Shown here piece after piece: positions 3,374 through 21,313 of a DNA stretch of 32,000 nucleotides (position 1 is the stretch's first letter; every line of letters begins with the position of its first letter). A model generated the notes under the pieces. It was not told the DNA's origin, ran no database searches, and saw nothing but the letters and a program-made list of their open reading frames with translations. The position numbers were made by a program, and so were the translations under genes. The stretch is taken from contig OZ245049.1 in NCBI GenBank assembly GCA_965224465.1, forward strand, positions 960,001-992,000, in the 5' to 3' direction. This stretch comes from Flavobacteriaceae bacterium. Lineage in GTDB: Bacteria; Bacteroidota; Bacteroidia; Flavobacteriales; Flavobacteriaceae.

Positions 3374-4804
3374 TTAATCCTCTTCAAAATGCTCCTTATT
3401 AAACCCAATCAAATAGAGTTTTTCTTGGGCACGAGTCACCGCAGTGTACAACCATCTTAAATACGATACACTTTGACCATCTGGCAAATATGGCTGCTCA
3501 ATAAAAACAGTTTTCCACTGCCCTCCTTGGGATTTATGACACGTAACGGCGTACGAAAACTTAACTTGCAAAGCATTAAAATAGATATTATTCTTAATTG
3601 CTAGCATGCGTTTGTAATTGGATTTTTCATCCGCATAATCCAACGCAACTTCTTGGTATAATTTATTAGACTCCTCATAGGTAAGCGATGGTGTTTCAGA
3701 AGTCAACGTATCTAGTAAAATAACAGTATCAAAAGGGTTTTGATCTGGATAGTCAATCATTCTAATTTTTACTTCAGCAAATCTAAAACCATACAATTCT
3801 TTACTTCCTCTTATTTCCAATACCTCACAAATATCACCATTCGCAATAAATCCAGCATCACTTGTATCATCGAGCCAATAGTAATTATTTTTAACAACCA
3901 TAATATAATCACCTGTAGAGATCTCACTTTCTTGACCACGAATCTTCCCGCGAATTTGAGCATTGTATTGATTTGCTCGTTTATTAGACCTTACTATAAA
4001 AGTAGTATCCTCAACTCCTTCACTGTCATAAGCAACGTTCAATGCGTCTAAAATATCATAACCGTCCTCCAAACGCACGATGTCTGGAAATCCTAATTGA
4101 AATTTAAAAGGTGCAAATCCTCCAGTATTCAAAATATGGCGTAATTCCGTAGCATTTGTAAGTATTCCAGAATTTTTATGTTGGCGCATCACTTCTGTCA
4201 ATTCCACCTCCACTACATTCTTATCATAGTGCATCGATAAATTATCTTTCACCAATGCAGGACTTATATCTAATTTTACAGGAGGTAACTGGGCCGTATC
4301 ACCAATTAACACGAGTTTGCAATTGACACCTGAATATACATAATCTATAAGATCGTCTAATAAAGAACCCGAACTCATAAACTGATTATTACTTGCTTTA
4401 TCTGGAATCATAGAGGCTTCATCCACAAAAAAGATGGTATTTGTGTGTTTATTTACCTGCCGTACAAATTTAATTCCCCCATTAGATTCTTTTTTCGGGT
4501 GGTACATTTTCTTATGAATAGTAAAAGCCTGAGATTTTGAATACCCAGAAATCACCTTTGCAGCCCTACCAGTAGGGGCTAAAAGGACATATTTCTTCCC
4601 TGCAAGCCATAAATTGTTCACAACAGCACTAATTGTTGTTGTTTTCCCTGTTCCTGCGTAACCTTTTAATAAAAAAAGAGCCTTTTTATCAGTAGAAAAA
4701 ATAAAATCTGACAGCTTATCCAGCAGTTCCTCCTGAGTATCAGTAGGTATAAACGGGAATGACTTAGTAATGTGACTATAAAAATCGTTGGCGGTTTTAA
4801 TCAT
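3374..4804 (-). CDS. RecD-like superfamily-1 DNA helicase (AAA_30 / UvrD_C_2 type)
   Basis: Walker A GYAGTGKTT, Walker B FFVDEASM, LIGDTAQLPPV and C-terminal TCHKSQGGQW. I start at the internal Met (MIKTANDF, ATG 4804-4802); the 29-codon upstream extension in the track ORF looks non-coding and overlaps the divergent promoter region. Confidence 0.85.
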   Translation of the reverse strand: MIKTANDFYSHITKSFPFIPTDTQEELLDKLSDFIFSTDKKALFLLKGYAGTGKTTTISAVVNNLWLAGKKYVLLAPTGRAAKVISGYSKSQAFTIHKKMYHPKKESNGGIKFVRQVNKHTNTIFFVDEASMIPDKASNNQFMSSGSLLDDLIDYVYSGVNCKLVLIGDTAQLPPVKLDISPALVKDNLSMHYDKNVVEVELTEVMRQHKNSGILTNATELRHILNTGGFAPFKFQLGFPDIVRLEDGYDILDALNVAYDSEGVEDTTFIVRSNKRANQYNAQIRGKIRGQESEISTGDYIMVVKNNYYWLDDTSDAGFIANGDICEVLEIRGSKELYGFRFAEVKIRMIDYPDQNPFDTVILLDTLTSETPSLTYEESNKLYQEVALDYADEKSNYKRMLAIKNNIYFNALQVKFSYAVTCHKSQGGQWKTVFIEQPYLPDGQSVSYLRWLYTAVTRAQEKLYLIGFNKEHFEED

Positions 4805-4906: not shown

Positions 4907-5635
4907 ATGGTATTTTATATTATTGGAGCTATTATTTTGGTAGGTATTATAGCATATGTTGCTGTAAATTATATCCCAAAAAAATTACATTGGATATTAT
5001 CTATTGCACTACTTGGTGCAGCAGGATATTTATTGTTTTTAATTAATAGCAGCATTATGGAGCCTTTACGCTTCAACAAAGAAAAGCAAATTCGTTATGC
5101 TCAAGTCATCAAAAACCTAAAGGTGATTAGAGATGCTCAAGTTGCCCACAAAACGGTAACTGGAGAGTTCACAAAAAGCGGAGAAGACTTAATCAAGTTT
5201 ATTGACACTGCACAGTTTGCAATTACGCAAACTCGTAACATCGTAGTAAAAGAGAAACGTGGTCTTATTACTGTAGATGTAGAAAAAAGAGTTATTGATA
5301 CGATTGGACATGAACCGGTAAGAGCTAATTTTGCTGGAAAAAATTATAAAAACATGCTTAAAGTAAAAGGCATGGACAAAATAAAATTTATTTTTGCTGT
5401 TGACGAAATTGAAAAATTCGGAAAATTAACCGAGCCTGTATTTGAAGTGAAAGTTGATAAAAAAATAGTTTTAGAAGGAATGACAGACTATTTAATTCGT
5501 CAAGAATTAGAAGCAGCTACCGGAGACGAAGTAAGAGGTAAATTTATCTCTGTAGGATCTCTAAATGAAGTTAGTGAAAACGGAAACTGGCCTCCATATT
5601 ATGACAAAGCAGATAAGCAACTTAATAAACAATAA
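4907..5635 (+). CDS. hypothetical membrane-anchored protein
   Basis: Long ORF. The likely start is MVFYIIGAIILVG (ATG 4907), which gives two N-terminal hydrophobic helices. No recognisable catalytic motif. Confidence 0.7.
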   Translation: MVFYIIGAIILVGIIAYVAVNYIPKKLHWILSIALLGAAGYLLFLINSSIMEPLRFNKEKQIRYAQVIKNLKVIRDAQVAHKTVTGEFTKSGEDLIKFIDTAQFAITQTRNIVVKEKRGLITVDVEKRVIDTIGHEPVRANFAGKNYKNMLKVKGMDKIKFIFAVDEIEKFGKLTEPVFEVKVDKKIVLEGMTDYLIRQELEAATGDEVRGKFISVGSLNEVSENGNWPPYYDKADKQLNKQ

Positions 5636-17015: not shown

Positions 17016-17089
17016 GGCGTGGTAGCTCAGTTGGTTAGAGCGTCGGATTCATAACCCGGAGGTCTGCAGTTCAATTCTGCATCACGCTA
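17016..17089 (+). tRNA. tRNA with CAT anticodon (Met elongator; a lysidine-modified Ile2 cannot be excluded)
   Basis: Hand-folded cloverleaf: acceptor ggcgtgg/tcacgct (two G-U pairs), D arm gctc-agttggtta-gagc, anticodon loop ttCATaa, T arm tgcag-ttcaatt-ctgca. It is not initiator-like (no C1-A72 mismatch, no GGG/CCC in the anticodon stem). No CCA is encoded. Confidence 0.85.
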
Positions 17090-17095
17090 CAAGTA

Positions 17096-17128
17096 AAGCG
17101 ATTTAGGAAACTAAATCGCTTTTTTTTG
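17096..17128 (+). terminator. intrinsic terminator after tRNA-Met
   Basis: aagcgatttag-gaaa-ctaaatcgctt hairpin followed by a T8 run. Confidence 0.75.
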
Positions 17129-17572
17129 TTTAAAATTTAGAGAAATCAACTTCTTAAAAACTGATAAAGGCTGGAGGATATACCAGAGATCAGTTGGACT
17201 GCTGATCATTACTTTTACCGTGAAAATAATTCGAATATATGTATTTCCCTTCTTGTTAATTTAACAGGTCATCCCTCTGGGATTCTTATTCTATTAATTT
17301 TTTATTTGCTACGAACAGTTTGTCCCTCTGGGACTTCTACTTTTACCTGCTACAGAAAAGTAATTTGTTTGTGTTTCATCTTTTATAACATCACTTTTGA
17401 AAGTCGATTTCTGTAATTGAGAAAGCAGGATATATTCTAATAATTGTCTCTTATAATATGCTCCGTAGGTGCAAACTGTTTGTTTTGTTATAATACCTGT
17501 GATATATTTGTGCGATTCATCACTGTTTTATTTATGTATTAGGGTTTGCCTGCCTTTTAACGTAAAAACAAT

Positions 17573-17770
17573 TTGAATGTATATTTGCGTATATGTATTT
17601 GCCTTCTTGTTAATTTAACAGGTCATCCCTCTGGGATTCTTATTCTATTAATTTTTTATTTGCTACGAACAGTTTGTCCCTCTGGGACTTCTACTTTTAC
17701 CTGCTACAGAAAAGTAATTTGTTTGTGTTTCATCTTTTATAACATCACTTTTGAAAGTCGATTTCTGTAA
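17573..17770 (+). CDS. questionable 65-codon TTG-start ORF inside array unit 2 (hydrophobic, Cys-rich)
   Basis: Track ORF. The start codon is TTG, not ATG, and there is no in-frame ATG. It is repeated in units 2-5 only because the DNA is repeated. Confidence 0.15.
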   Translation: MNVYLRICICLLVNLTGHPSGILILLIFYLLRTVCPSGTSTFTCYRKVICLCFIFYNITFESRFL

Positions 17771-17924
17771 TTGAGAAAGCAGGATATATTCTAATAATTG
17801 TCTCTTATAATATGCTCCGTAGGAGCAAACTGTTTTTTTGTTATAATTCCTGTAATATATTTGTGCGATTCATCACGGTTTTGTTTATGTATTAGGGTTT
17901 GCCTGCCTTTTACCCTAAAACAAT

Positions 17925-18122
17925 TTGAATGTATATTTGCATATATGTATTTGCCTTCTTGTTAATTTAACAGGTCATCCCTCTGGGATTCTTATTCTAT
18001 TAATTTTTTATTTGCTACGAACAGTTTGTCCCTCTGGGACTTCTACTTTTACCTGCTACAGAAAAGTAATTTGTTTGTGTTTCATCTTTTATAACATCAC
18101 TTTTGAAAGTCGATTTCTGTAA
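17925..18122 (+). CDS. questionable 65-codon TTG-start ORF inside array unit 3
   Basis: Same as 17573..17770, with one R-to-H difference. Confidence 0.15.
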   Translation: MNVYLHICICLLVNLTGHPSGILILLIFYLLRTVCPSGTSTFTCYRKVICLCFIFYNITFESRFL

Positions 18123-18276
18123 TTGAGAAAGCAGGATATATTCTAATAATTGTCTCTTATAATATGCTCCGTAGGTGCAAACTGTTTTTTTGTTATAATT
18201 CCTGTAATATATTTGTACGATTCATCACGGTTTTGTTTATGTATTAGGGTTTGCCTGCCTTTTACCCTAAAACAAT

Positions 18277-18474
18277 TTGAATGTATATTTGCGTATATGT
18301 ATTTGCCTTCTTGTTAATTTAACAGGTCATCCCTCTGGGATTCTTATTCTATTAATTTTTTATTTGCTACGAACAGTTTGTCCCTCTGGGACTTCTACTT
18401 TTACCTGCTACAGAAAAGTAATTTGTTTGTGTTTCATCTTTTATAACATCACTTTTGAAAGTCGATTTCTGTAA
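18277..18474 (+). CDS. questionable 65-codon TTG-start ORF inside array unit 4
   Basis: Identical protein to 17573..17770. Confidence 0.15.
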   Translation: MNVYLRICICLLVNLTGHPSGILILLIFYLLRTVCPSGTSTFTCYRKVICLCFIFYNITFESRFL

Positions 18475-18629
18475 TTGAGAAAGCAGGATATATTCTAATA
18501 ATTGTCTCTTATAATATGCTCCGTAGGTGCAAACTGTTTTTTTGTTATAATTCCTGTAATATATTTGTGCGATTCATCACGGTTTTGTTTATGTATTAGG
18601 GTTTGCCTGCCTTTTAACGTAAAAACAAT

Positions 18630-18827
18630 TTGAATGTATATTTGCGTATATGTATTTGCCTTCTTGTTAATTTAACAGGTCATCTCTCTGGGATTCTTAT
18701 CCTATTAATTTTTTATTTGCTACGAACGGTTTGTACCTCTGGGACTTCTACTTTTACCTGCTACAGAAAAGTAATTTGTTTGTGTTTCATCTTTTATAAC
18801 ATCACTTTTGTAAGCCATTTTTTGTAA
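18630..18827 (+). CDS. questionable 65-codon TTG-start ORF inside diverged array unit 5
   Basis: The ORF length is preserved despite 9 nt differences: 4 codons changed synonymously and 4 non-synonymously. This is not decisive. Confidence 0.15.
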   Translation: MNVYLRICICLLVNLTGHLSGILILLIFYLLRTVCTSGTSTFTCYRKVICLCFIFYNITFVSHFL

Positions 18828-19089
18828 TTGAGAAAGCAGGTTGTTTTCTAATATTTGTTCGGGTTGTGTGGTCATACTTGCCTCTTATAACATGCTCCGT
18901 AGGAGCAAACTGTTTGTAGCACCATAGGTGCGACCTGTTAATCTATCCATTCAAATAATCATTTTTCCCAAATCCTCACTTAAACACCTATAAATGATGC
19001 GTGTGAAACTTTAGTTATTAATGGACAGTCTTGGCTTTTGTGCTATTAATAATTATAATAATGTAGTTTAGTTTCTGCTTCAAAAGTTT

Positions 19090-20004
19090 TTAATTCCACC
19101 CCTTACTCTTAAGTACCCATCCATTATTAAGTTTAATGACAGGAGGTTTCACCTGTAATTTATTATAGTATTTTTCAAATATCTTATCTTCCTTTTCTTT
19201 GTCCTCAGTGGCGTACGAATAAGCGAACATGAATTTGGGTTGGGACGCAAGGATTTTTACGCGTTTGTCAATGAGACCAAAATCTTGCTTTTGAATTAAA
19301 GTTTTTTTCATTTCAGCCATAAAAGATTTCGGATTTCGTTCGATTGAACTTTCATAACATCTTAAATGAGCTTCGAGTCCAGATACACCACCTAGAGCCC
19401 CACTTCCTTTCTTAAGCTCAATAACACAAAGAACTCCTGCTTTATTTACCGCTATGATATCAAATCTAGGTTTTTTTATTTTCCCATTTCTCCCTTTATA
19501 GATACAAGCAAATTTACTTTTCGTACTCACTTGATATTCTATGTCAATAATTGTATAGTCAGATTTTCCATCACGATTTTCAATAGATAATTGATGTTGC
19601 TCTATCCTTTCTGGTTTCTGATTTAGTTTGATCCATTTATCCATAACCCCTTTGGCTTCATCAAAATATTCCTTAAAATTACCTGATTTGAATTTTTGGG
19701 TCAACTCATTTCTTTTCTGTGTCAATCTTTCTATCATCTCGCTACCTAAATCTTTTGCAGCTCCATTTTCTCCTGTATAGAAATAGTTTTTATTAAACAA
19801 TACGCTATTTGCGCTACTAACCATGGCTATATTTCCTCCTTGATAATAGATATTCAAGTAATTGTTTCGAATTTGAACATCTAATTTATTTCTGTCCTTA
19901 TAAATTACATCAAGCATTGGTTTCAACGCACCTGATTTCAATGTCAATGCATCCCACAACTTACCTTTATGAATTCCTCTACCTAAGTATTCCTTATCCA
20001 CCAT
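19090..20004 (-). CDS. PD-(D/E)xK nuclease-fold protein, family unassigned (possibly a Shedu/DUF4263-like or restriction-endonuclease-like orphan)
   Basis: 304 aa with a clean ATG start. The core motif is PRFD(182)IIAVNKAGVLCVIE(196)LK(198)KG, a beta-strand with D, then a hydrophobic strand with ExK, followed by LEAHLRCY. The N-terminal ~130 aa has no motif I recognise. Confidence 0.6.
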   Translation of the reverse strand: MVDKEYLGRGIHKGKLWDALTLKSGALKPMLDVIYKDRNKLDVQIRNNYLNIYYQGGNIAMVSSANSVLFNKNYFYTGENGAAKDLGSEMIERLTQKRNELTQKFKSGNFKEYFDEAKGVMDKWIKLNQKPERIEQHQLSIENRDGKSDYTIIDIEYQVSTKSKFACIYKGRNGKIKKPRFDIIAVNKAGVLCVIELKKGSGALGGVSGLEAHLRCYESSIERNPKSFMAEMKKTLIQKQDFGLIDKRVKILASQPKFMFAYSYATEDKEKEDKIFEKYYNKLQVKPPVIKLNNGWVLKSKGWN

Positions 20005-20831: not shown

Positions 20832-21289
20832 GATAATAGAATTTAGGTTTTGAAAATTATATAACATTAAAACTACACTAACATACGTTATATACTCATG
20901 ATAAATATCATTTCATAATTTAGCGTTAAACCGCACAGGACAAACGCACATTTTATACTCAATACGATTATCCGGCACACTTGATTCCTACTTACTTTAA
21001 GTCTTTTTCCTACAACACTTTATTTTTTGTATTTTTTTCTCCATAAAATAAAAGCGATTTTTAATGGTATTTAATAGCTTTGAATCTCATTTTTATATCT
21101 TTATCTAAAGACATCTTCAGAGAAAGCAACATCTAATGTCTAATGTAATTTATTTGTTACACCCATTGCTCTTCAAACTCCGAAAACCTCAATTATTGTA
21201 TCTTTTTGTTTTTATTAAATCTTTCTTTTTTTTACCTGAGGGATAGTAGTGGCATCCTTTTTTGTTTTTGGGCAAAAAAGATATAACGT

Positions 21290-21313
21290 ATAGCCCGACC
21301 CTTGGGGCAGGCC
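21290..21313 (-). repeat. GC-rich hairpin element, left copy (inverted relative to 21947-21976)
   Basis: The reverse complement gcctgccccaagggtcgggctata matches gcctcgccccaagggtacgaggtata downstream of the YkoF-like gene. On its own strand it is followed by a T-rich tract. Confidence 0.6.

Follow-up and report, generated by a model that had tools for sequence, protein, structure and literature searches.

Enzymes of the HUH/Y1 type read hairpin substrates on single-stranded DNA, a mode of action established for IS608 and for the E. coli transposase TnpA-REP. TnpA-REP cleaves and rejoins single strands of repetitive extragenic palindromes (REPs) and bacterial interspersed mosaic elements (BIMEs) in vitro, and the transposases of the IS200/IS605 insertion sequences (IS) move via circular single-stranded intermediates. 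REPs are short GC-rich hairpins with a conserved unpaired flank, whose copies lie singly, in inverted pairs or in tandem clusters, typically between convergent genes; in a REPtron, the Y1/HUH gene for TnpA-REP, also called RAYT (REP-associated tyrosine transposase), has such hairpins, in inverted copies, on either side (PMC3733652, PMC6006769). A further group, TnpA-Y1 subclass 1.2, was recorded as being without REPs in a systematic survey (Quentin et al. 2018, PMC6006769). The element considered here is a 352-bp tandem array from a Flavobacteriaceae bacterium (GCA_965224465.1), contained in a window of 32,000 nt (positions 960,001 to 992,000 of contig OZ245049.1, with a G+C content of ~30-35%). 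Its base composition and a Flavo-1 RNA give the window a Flavobacteriia-like appearance. The array is quite probably a tandem amplification of a chimeric 352-bp relic that probably has no function of its own. On this reading it is a decayed junction between a REPtron and the type I restriction gene hsdR, amplified in BIME-like fashion. Confidence is high for the composition of the unit and moderate for the order of events and the absence of function.

Across the window, Tandem Repeats Finder reports a single array at 17236-18858, with a score of 3048, 97% matches and 4.6 copies at a period of 352. In all, 4.6-4.8 copies stand head to tail at 17212-18939, and in the unit alignment similarity fades near 17212 on the left and at 18916-18939 on the right. 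A preliminary description of this DNA had reported a ~352-nt array of the same extent, and its period, its near-identical interior units (97.7-99.4%), the start of its leftmost unit at ~17212 with a 12-nt gap and its two junction alleles all reappear in the alignment. The five units were aligned on the minus strand, each from its higher to its lower coordinate (A 18914→18539, B 18538→18187, C 18186→17835, D 17834→17481, E 17480→~17212), as follows:

17212-18939, no strand assigned: whole tandem array, four full units and one partial unit of 352 bp (Tandem Repeats Finder, unit alignment, identities)
18539-18914, minus: unit A, 376 nt, founder-like, the only unit to keep the hsdR ATG and the 23-nt segment; tnpA in frame at junction allele 1 (unit alignment, identities)
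18187-18538, minus: unit B, 352 nt; junction allele 2, a 1-nt deletion that frameshifts tnpA (unit alignment, profile hidden Markov model, HMM)
17835-18186, minus: unit C, 352 nt; junction allele 2 (unit alignment, HMM)
17481-17834, minus: unit D, 354 nt; junction allele 1, tnpA fragment with an in-frame stop (unit alignment, HMM, tblastn)
17212-17480, minus: unit E, partial, ~269 nt; tnpA fragment with a 12-nt in-frame deletion, homology gone after ~17 codons (unit alignment; weak HMM stretch at 17213-17242)

Pairwise identity is 99.4% between B and C, 97.7% between either of these and D, and 94.9% between the rightmost unit A and the others, while the junction alleles follow the order 1, 2, 2, 1. 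These variants bear on the suspicion that the repeat number, or the array as a whole, stems from a mis-assembled dispersed repeat. Such suspicion is nourished by the hairpin family described below, which breaks short-read assemblies of metagenome-assembled genomes (MAGs) and has many Lutibacter matches at contig ends. An artefact is nevertheless very improbable: the source contig of 5,241,564 bp suggests a finished long-read assembly, both edges of the array grade into unique sequence, and the ordered, unit-specific variants (alleles 1, 2, 2, 1; 23 nt in A only; a 12-nt gap in E only) are unlike those of a collapsed or expanded repeat.

Read on the minus strand, each unit consists of a hairpin (H3), 18 nt, hsdR codons 1-31, two inverted hairpins (H2, H1), ~20 nt, and tnpA-Y1 codons 2-43 fused into the next H3. 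The two gene fragments make up ~60% of the unit, and the remainder carries the three REP-like hairpins. The unit had been presented as non-coding and unplaceable and the locus as novel, a view that these fragments and the family hairpins overturn; by the description's own criterion, that the unit should prove part of a known IS or the like, the claim of novelty falls. No frame runs open across the units, in agreement with the exclusion of a repeat protein, and a CRISPR array is likewise rejected because the entire 352-bp unit repeats. With blastn, one unit found no match in phage and plasmid collections.

The transposase fragments were identified with two queries, the intact protein of locus L005 in tblastn and a profile of 80 TnpA homologues in the HMM search. 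Over the four complete junctions, the HMM gives independent E-values (i-E) of 9.6e-18 and 2.2e-17 for the in-frame copies and of 3.1e-9 and 1.2e-9 for the frameshifted ones. The fragments are:

18534-18659, minus: tnpA-Y1 5' fragment, codons 2-43 (ANTYTQIYIQIVFTLKGRQTLIHKQNRDESHKYITGIITKKQ), with AAG instead of ATG at 18660-18662 (tblastn E 1.4e-11; HMM i-E 9.6e-18)
18182-18306, minus: tnpA-Y1 5' fragment, frameshifted (tblastn, HMM)
17830-17954, minus: tnpA-Y1 5' fragment, frameshifted (tblastn, HMM)
17489-17602, minus: tnpA-Y1 5' fragment with an internal stop (tblastn E 7e-10; HMM i-E 2.2e-17)
18938-18967, minus: relic of the last ~10 tnpA-Y1 codons (EK*LFEWID*), followed directly by H4 and H3 as downstream of intact genes (DNA alignment)

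The 3' relic is too short for the profile HMM and was picked up by shuffle-controlled DNA alignment, in which 18967→18938 corresponds to the final 30 nt of tnpA in loci with the intact gene, and the match extends over the downstream hairpins. Against four loci with intact genes (L068, L097, L047 and L052), the relic and its hairpins score 57-69, compared with 36 for the best of 200 shuffles. The window contains no intact tnpA, only codons 2-43 in each unit and the 10-codon 3' relic, and a word-indexed protein search with the 43-aa tnpA fragment as query returned four short fragments only. The minus strand nonetheless displays both halves of the intact layout: inverted H2 and H1 followed by tnpA codons 2-43 in each unit, and, at the upstream edge, the relic of the tnpA 3' end with H4 and H3 after it.

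The second gene in the unit is a start of hsdR, represented by these fragments:

18783-18875, minus: hsdR 5' fragment with ATG, codons 1-31 (MTTQPEQILENNLLSQLQKMAYKSDVIKDET); the open reading frame continues to 18720 (sequence matches, DNA identity, match in the PDB)
18431-18505, minus: hsdR 5' fragment without ATG and first codons (unit alignment, identities)
18079-18153, minus: hsdR 5' fragment, ATG and first codons missing (unit alignment)
17727-17801, minus: hsdR 5' fragment, ATG and first codons missing (unit alignment)
17373-17447, minus: hsdR 5' fragment, ATG and first codons missing (unit alignment)

The sequence MTTQPEQILENNLLSQLQKMAYKSDVIKDET represents the beginning of an EcoR124-type HsdR; its best PDB match is EcoR124 HsdR residues 31-84 (E 0.016), and DNA identity to the hsdR start of locus L001 amounts to 88% in unit A and 78% in unit B. 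The preliminary description had noted a 23-nt insertion in the rightmost unit. The extra segment is indeed there, but the more fitting reading is that the remaining units have lost it, because it holds the ATG and first codons of hsdR and because unit A is the nearest to real hsdR. Truncated reading frames resembling the fragment also occur in the source genome and in other genomes. The window shares an identical stretch of 27 nt from this gene start (caacccgaacaaatattagaaaacaac) with loci L001 and L002, and L002 carries, at 4560-4680 and 5020-5110, another orphan hsdR 5' fragment (52 aa), bracketed by ~95-nt direct repeats.

The hairpins were located with the motif AACAG(G/T)T(C/T) and an adjoining hairpin that has a 5-bp stem and a 3-nt loop. 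This motif occurs 16 times in the window, with all copies inside the array and none expected by chance. Each unit has two plus-strand hairpins (H1 and H2, 51 nt apart) and one on the minus strand (H3), and H4 is confined to the right edge:

18919-18939, minus: H4, gene-proximal type, AACAGGTC-GCACC-TAT-GGTGC, right end only (motif scan, alignment)
18894-18919, minus: H3 with intact tag, CTACAAACAGTTT-GCTCC-TAC-GGAGC (motif scan)
18519-18538, minus: H3 copy, AACAGTTT-GCACC-TAC-GGAGC, with fused tnpA codons in place of the tag (motif scan)
18167-18186, minus: H3 copy (motif scan)
17815-17834, minus: H3 copy with perfect stem GCTCC/GGAGC (motif scan)
17461-17480, minus: H3 copy (motif scan)
18720-18745, plus: H2 copy, degenerate (unit A), CTACGAACGGTTT-GTACC-TCT-GGGAC (motif scan, unit alignment)
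18367-18392, plus: H2, tagged REP unit CTACGAACAGTTT-GTCCC-TCT-GGGAC (motif scan)
18015-18040, plus: H2 copy (motif scan)
17663-17688, plus: H2 copy (motif scan)
17309-17334, plus: H2 copy (motif scan)
18674-18694, plus: H1 copy with one stem mismatch, AACAGGTC-ATCTC-TCT-GGGAT (motif scan)
18321-18341, plus: H1, AACAGGTC-ATCCC-TCT-GGGAT, ~20 nt upstream of the start of the minus-strand tnpA fragment (motif scan)
17969-17989, plus: H1 copy (motif scan)
17617-17637, plus: H1 copy (motif scan)
17263-17283, plus: H1 copy (motif scan)

A separate 7-bp hairpin (GATCAGTTGGACTGCTGATC) at 17188-17207 on the plus strand, between the terminator of a tRNA-Met gene and the left edge of the array, is unrelated to this REP family.

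The same hairpins are found well beyond the window, scattered over many Bacteroidota genomes. A scan for the H1/H2 motif, with one genome per species and the source genome not among them, recovered 34 loci (L003-L036) in Lutibacter, Chryseobacterium, Epilithonimonas, Flavobacterium, Roseivirga, Cytophagales, Saprospiraceae, Bacteroidales, Ignavibacteria and one Desulfobacteraceae MAG; the viral collection holds no copy of the motif. The architecture common to these loci is two direct hairpins ~50 nt apart, often opposite an inverted pair. In 31 of the 34 loci tnpA is absent, so that they represent dispersed copies. One Lutibacter MAG alone has 10 motif loci without tnpA, seven of which are ended by a contig end, and Lutibacter also carries a ~235-bp palindromic element of four hairpins (L017:2970-3210) on many contigs, often at their ends, where it probably breaks short-read assemblies. 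This four-hairpin element was seen at L017 and nine other loci of the Lutibacter MAG C10, and at seven in genome C8. GC-rich variants of the hairpins appear in soil metagenomes. No published paper containing the hairpin sequences was found.

Intact genes show what the remnants in the window derive from. In L005, hairpin sets flank a 153-aa gene in inverted orientation, and L025 has the same layout. The L005 protein matches Pfam Y1_Tnp (PF01797, E 1.4e-24) and NCBIfam NF033573 for IS200/IS605 (68 bits, cut-off 55), whereas it reaches only 38 bits against NCBIfam REP_Tyr_transpos, under the cut-off of 80, and its Y motif reads YILNQESHH. Intact proteins are 148-153 aa long and share the motifs D-H-x-H (DHTH or DHLH), WQ and Y---Q--HH. 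Read along the strand of the gene, intact loci begin with inverted hairpins; the reading frame from ATG to stop follows after ~20 nt, and direct hairpins set in at the stop codon. The canonical RAYT signature (NH.H…Y..NP), sought as a regular expression across all loci, turned up only the class-1-like gene of L016.

The association between gene and hairpin was surveyed in the flanks of 80 metagenome loci with tnpA homologues (L042-L121). Of the flanks within 140 nt of tnpA, 62 of 74 upstream and 66 of 78 downstream contain a 5-bp hairpin that is perfect and GC-rich, and hairpin density is 12.8 per kb near tnpA compared with 1.09 per kb more than 600 nt away. When sites were anchored on the tag alone (CTA[CT]AA), so that pairing was not selected for, a perfect 5-bp stem stood at exactly offset 13 in 73 of 89 sites, with 0-1 at every other offset. 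The two sides of the stem covary: both partners of a pair differ in 85 cells, where shuffling gives 17.9±6.1 and none of 500 shuffles reaches the observed count, and slid controls collapse. The hairpin family is a structure-defined element of the form CTAYAA-N7-5-bp stem-3/4-nt loop. Integron attC sites, dif/Xer sites, C-protein operators and terminators were dropped as identities, given that different stems covary within one element and that the motif tracks tnpA. CGTC-tagged REPs have been reported for Bacteroidetes (PMC3733652); they are ruled out as the identity of these hairpins by their 8-9-bp stems and CGTC tag.

Tandem multiplication is habitual in this family. Tandem Repeats Finder detects 49-54-nt arrays of 2-12 copies at more than 20 loci, and the Roseivirga hairpins form a 49-nt array of 11.6 copies. 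The nearest parallel to the long-period array of the window is that of L099:3219-5143, in which a hairpin unit of 236 nt is repeated 8.1 times (or one of 473 nt 4.1 times) directly after an intact tnpA-Y1 and contains no tnpA fragments. As multiplication of this kind is the rule in the family, "BIME-like" is a fair description of the window, and of the three guesses offered in the preliminary description, a giant BIME-like repeat cluster was the closest to the truth.

Set beside the described systems, the intact genes resemble TnpA-Y1 subclass 1.2 in length (148-153 aa), in D-H-x-H, WQ and Y---Q--HH, in a conserved C-terminal extension and in their occurrence in Bacteroidetes, an assignment made by published signature motifs and not by the models of the survey. 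They differ in the middle residue of the HUH motif, which is DHTH or DHLH here and DH[IV]H in Table 1 of the survey (PMC6006769), and in possessing covarying hairpin flanks. From class-2 TnpA-REP they are separated by Y---Q--HH instead of Y---NP and by the low REP_Tyr_transpos score. With the REP/BIME system, the family shares short GC-rich hairpins with a conserved unpaired flank, copies that are single, in inverted pairs or in tandem clusters, typically between convergent genes, and, at L005, L025 and the metagenome loci, a Y1/HUH gene that stands between inverted sets of these hairpins (PMC3733652, PMC6006769). The tag CTAC/CTAT is the complement of GTAG/ATAG. Differences from REPs are the stems of only 5 bp with loops of 3-4 nt, and the lack of GTAG/GTGG at the hairpin foot, the CTAY tag standing 9 nt off the stem (tag at offset 0, stem at offset 13). 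In sum, the system works like a REPtron with a protein of the IS200-like class 1.

The window itself keeps only gene remnants of such a REPtron, in the expected positions and orientation. Its array lies between convergent transcription units, as REP/BIME clusters do, and its tandem unit has REPs in both orientations (two plus, one minus), as in a BIME cluster. It differs in that the 352-bp unit consists mostly of gene fragments rather than of REPs and short linkers, and it is several times longer than the 49-54-nt units usual for the hairpin family, with gene fragments as linkers. Likeness to IS200/IS605 lies in the best curated matches of the intact homologue (NF033573 and Pfam Y1_Tnp) and in the combination of a hairpin and a site at a fixed distance, which resembles the left and right ends of IS608. 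However, the hairpin sets are inverted around the gene and often multiplied rather than same-strand at both ends, tnpB is absent, dispersed hairpins and hairpin arrays exist where the gene is missing, and the window offers 43-codon fragments in place of an intact Y1 gene. The REPIN-RAYT system of Pseudomonas (Bertels and Rainey; bioRxiv 10.1101/2021.07.10.451892) has a counterpart in the ~235-bp palindromic four-hairpin unit of Lutibacter with its many copies, but each hairpin here is self-complementary with its own stem, and two REPs do not pair together as in a REPIN.

The array could have been formed as follows. A REPtron would have stood immediately upstream of hsdR, in a decaying defence island between tRNA-Met and tRNA-His. 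Rearrangements at hairpin flanks may then have brought the upstream hairpin module next to hsdR codon ~31 and fused the tag region of H3, a downstream hairpin, with tnpA codon ~43 at a shared ACAAA. This tnpA-H3 join lies in ACAAAAAAACAG, with the fuller context ATAACAAAAAAACAGTTTGC; at the join point, intact genes read …CAAAAA… and the tag flank reads CTACAAACAG, and ACAAA is common to both. The 352-bp segment would then have been multiplied by unequal crossing-over or replication slippage, with the interior kept homogeneous while the edge copies drifted. Unit A appears founder-like because it is closest to real hsdR and adjoins the complete downstream module, and near-identical units B-D between diverged edge units are the pattern that unequal crossing-over yields. 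REP-mediated events of a comparable kind were reportedly described in Salmonella by Shyamala, Schneider and Ames in 1990, as tandem chromosomal duplications with join-points in REP sequences. They extend over many kilobases and prove unstable under selection, whereas the present unit is 352 bp long, five-fold and aged, as its diverged edge units indicate.

Several observations weigh against this reconstruction. The order of rearrangements is reconstructed, not observed, and every tested protein of the source genome is a singleton cluster, which leaves no close relative to display the ancestral state or variation in copy number; the proteins of the window that were looked up by exact sequence have no record either. 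Furthermore, no hairpin copy lies outside the array in the 32-kb window, and the array is not an integer number of units, so that its left edge needs an extra deletion. The lack of function is itself an argument from absence, and each complete unit has a Bacteroidetes-type TAnnTTTG box on the plus strand.

A different origin would involve the enzyme itself: an HUH/Y1 protein would nick single-stranded DNA at the tag by the hairpin, and strand transfer or rolling-circle-like synthesis would generate head-to-tail multimers of the intervening DNA, a process that may go on remodelling the array. Both join-points of the unit are at hairpin flanks, one of them exactly in the tag region, and the immediate surroundings of intact tnpA very often contain hairpins in tandem arrays, which favours this mechanism. 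It is rather unlikely all the same, as an intact tnpA is absent from the window and none was found for the source genome (the 43-aa query returned short fragments only), 5-6 nt of microhomology explain the tnpA join equally well, and a homogeneous interior flanked by diverged units is what unequal crossing-over classically leaves behind. The cleavage activity of subclass 1.2 is assumed by analogy. There is some slight chance that subclass 1.2 TnpA-Y1 is the cognate enzyme of an overlooked and widespread Bacteroidota REP family and that its nicking and strand transfer, not passive crossing-over, made the array. Were this true, the array would be a natural record of HUH-driven tandem amplification capturing host gene fragments.

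The perfect TAnnTTTG box (TATATTTG) stands on the plus strand ~25-30 nt upstream of H1 in each complete unit and was lost from the leftmost unit by the 12-nt deletion. Together with the T-rich tracts after H1 and H2, both flagged by a terminator scan, it invites the idea of a functional RNA array, in which each unit would encode either a small RNA or an antisense transcript to tnpA or hsdR, with its own promoter and an end at H1 or H2. In reverse complement, however, the box spells the conserved tnpA codons QIY and is therefore probably incidental, a promoter-like sequence that comes free with the gene. An RNA gene array, another of the earlier guesses, is highly unlikely on further grounds: no Rfam family matches the array at the gathering score, with only chance-level snoRNA matches (E 2.8-8.3) in a relaxed scan at E ≤ 10; the fold z-scores of the whole unit, -0.92 and -1.65, are ordinary; 5-bp stems make weak terminators; and the unit is a pseudogene patchwork in which frameshift and stop variants are tolerated. 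Tolerance of frameshifts, stops and deletions between copies also argues against a dedicated function of any kind. At most, the decayed REPtron/hsdR array may provide small hairpins at RNA 3' ends and a recombination-prone spot of variable copy number.

The array is thus real but ordinary in kind, a multiplied REPtron-like remnant fused to an hsdR stub. By itself it has little consequence, beyond resolving an apparent mystery: even where a genome is compact, a uniform "non-coding" repeat of great length can consist of scraps from two genes and a few hairpins, multiplied in tandem. More worth pursuing is the hairpin family tied to subclass 1.2 Y1 proteins: ~85% of the examined loci of an IS200-like HUH group recorded as REP-less are flanked by covarying hairpins with a tag at a fixed distance. 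For the REP/RAYT field, this represents another lineage, independent of the first, with a REPtron lifestyle taken up by an enzyme of class 1 (IS200-type), and it supplies a defined substrate for biochemistry. The hairpin motif would also explain contig breaks in Bacteroidota MAGs.

The immediate neighbours of the array are two convergent transcription units:

17016-17122, plus: tRNA-Met (17016-17090) and a terminator-like hairpin (17095-17122), convergent with the 304-aa gene across the array (tRNA, Rfam and terminator scans)
19090-20004, minus: gene of a 304-aa probable PD-(D/E)xK protein of a defence-island gene pair, with its usual metallo-beta-lactamase-fold partner missing (homologues, model, loci)

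The spacing given earlier, 85 nt from the tRNA terminator and 150 nt from the stop of the 304-aa reading frame at 19090, is correct. The 304-aa protein has no match in Pfam, NCBIfam or PADLOC, and has 317 homologues. For its confident AlphaFold model (pLDDT 93), Foldseek finds nothing at E ≤ 0.001; the best-ranked structures are mostly PD-(D/E)xK nucleases, namely SduA (E 4.5e-3), then MunI, Exo5, NucS and HamA, and residues D182, E196 and K198 are invariant. Its initial labelling as a PD-(D/E)xK nuclease is plausible, although weakly supported.

Five loci of three homologues (L037-L041) have as neighbours hsdR with YgjP, N6_N4 methyltransferases, or a restriction endonuclease. A metallo-beta-lactamase-fold gene of 436-438 aa (Lactamase_B_2/RMMBL) follows the homologue in four of these loci. 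The pair forms a candidate two-gene defence module absent from PADLOC, and the 304-aa protein itself falls in an unannotated family with at least 317 members.

Adjacency to this gene, whose family lives in defence islands and whose stop is 150 nt from the end of the array, is the sole ground for supposing that the nuclease-like protein, or some other protein of defence, has the repeat as its target, decoy or regulatory site. The preliminary description had considered a recognition locus, a notion that is extremely improbable. Tandem Repeats Finder detects no comparable array beside the homologues in L037-L041, loci not scanned for the hairpin motif, where L037 and L038 have 20-nt micro-repeats only and L041 has a 222-nt repeat at least 4.5 kb from the homologue. 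The homologues sit among restriction-modification genes and mostly with the metallo-beta-lactamase-fold gene following, and the protein of the window is without a PADLOC match. Since that partner is absent and the 150-nt gap holds the tnpA relic, adjacency reflects deletion in a decaying defence island, not functional pairing.

A type III toxin-antitoxin system, in which repeats of ~34-36 nt lie upstream of a ToxN/AbiE-type endoribonuclease gene, was rejected as well: the unit here is 352 bp, the array is downstream of its neighbour on the strand of that gene, and the neighbouring protein matches no Pfam, NCBIfam or PADLOC family. The variable interval between tRNA-Met and tRNA-His additionally contains a Flavo-1 RNA (RF01705, 62.6 bits) at 21230-21304 on the plus strand.

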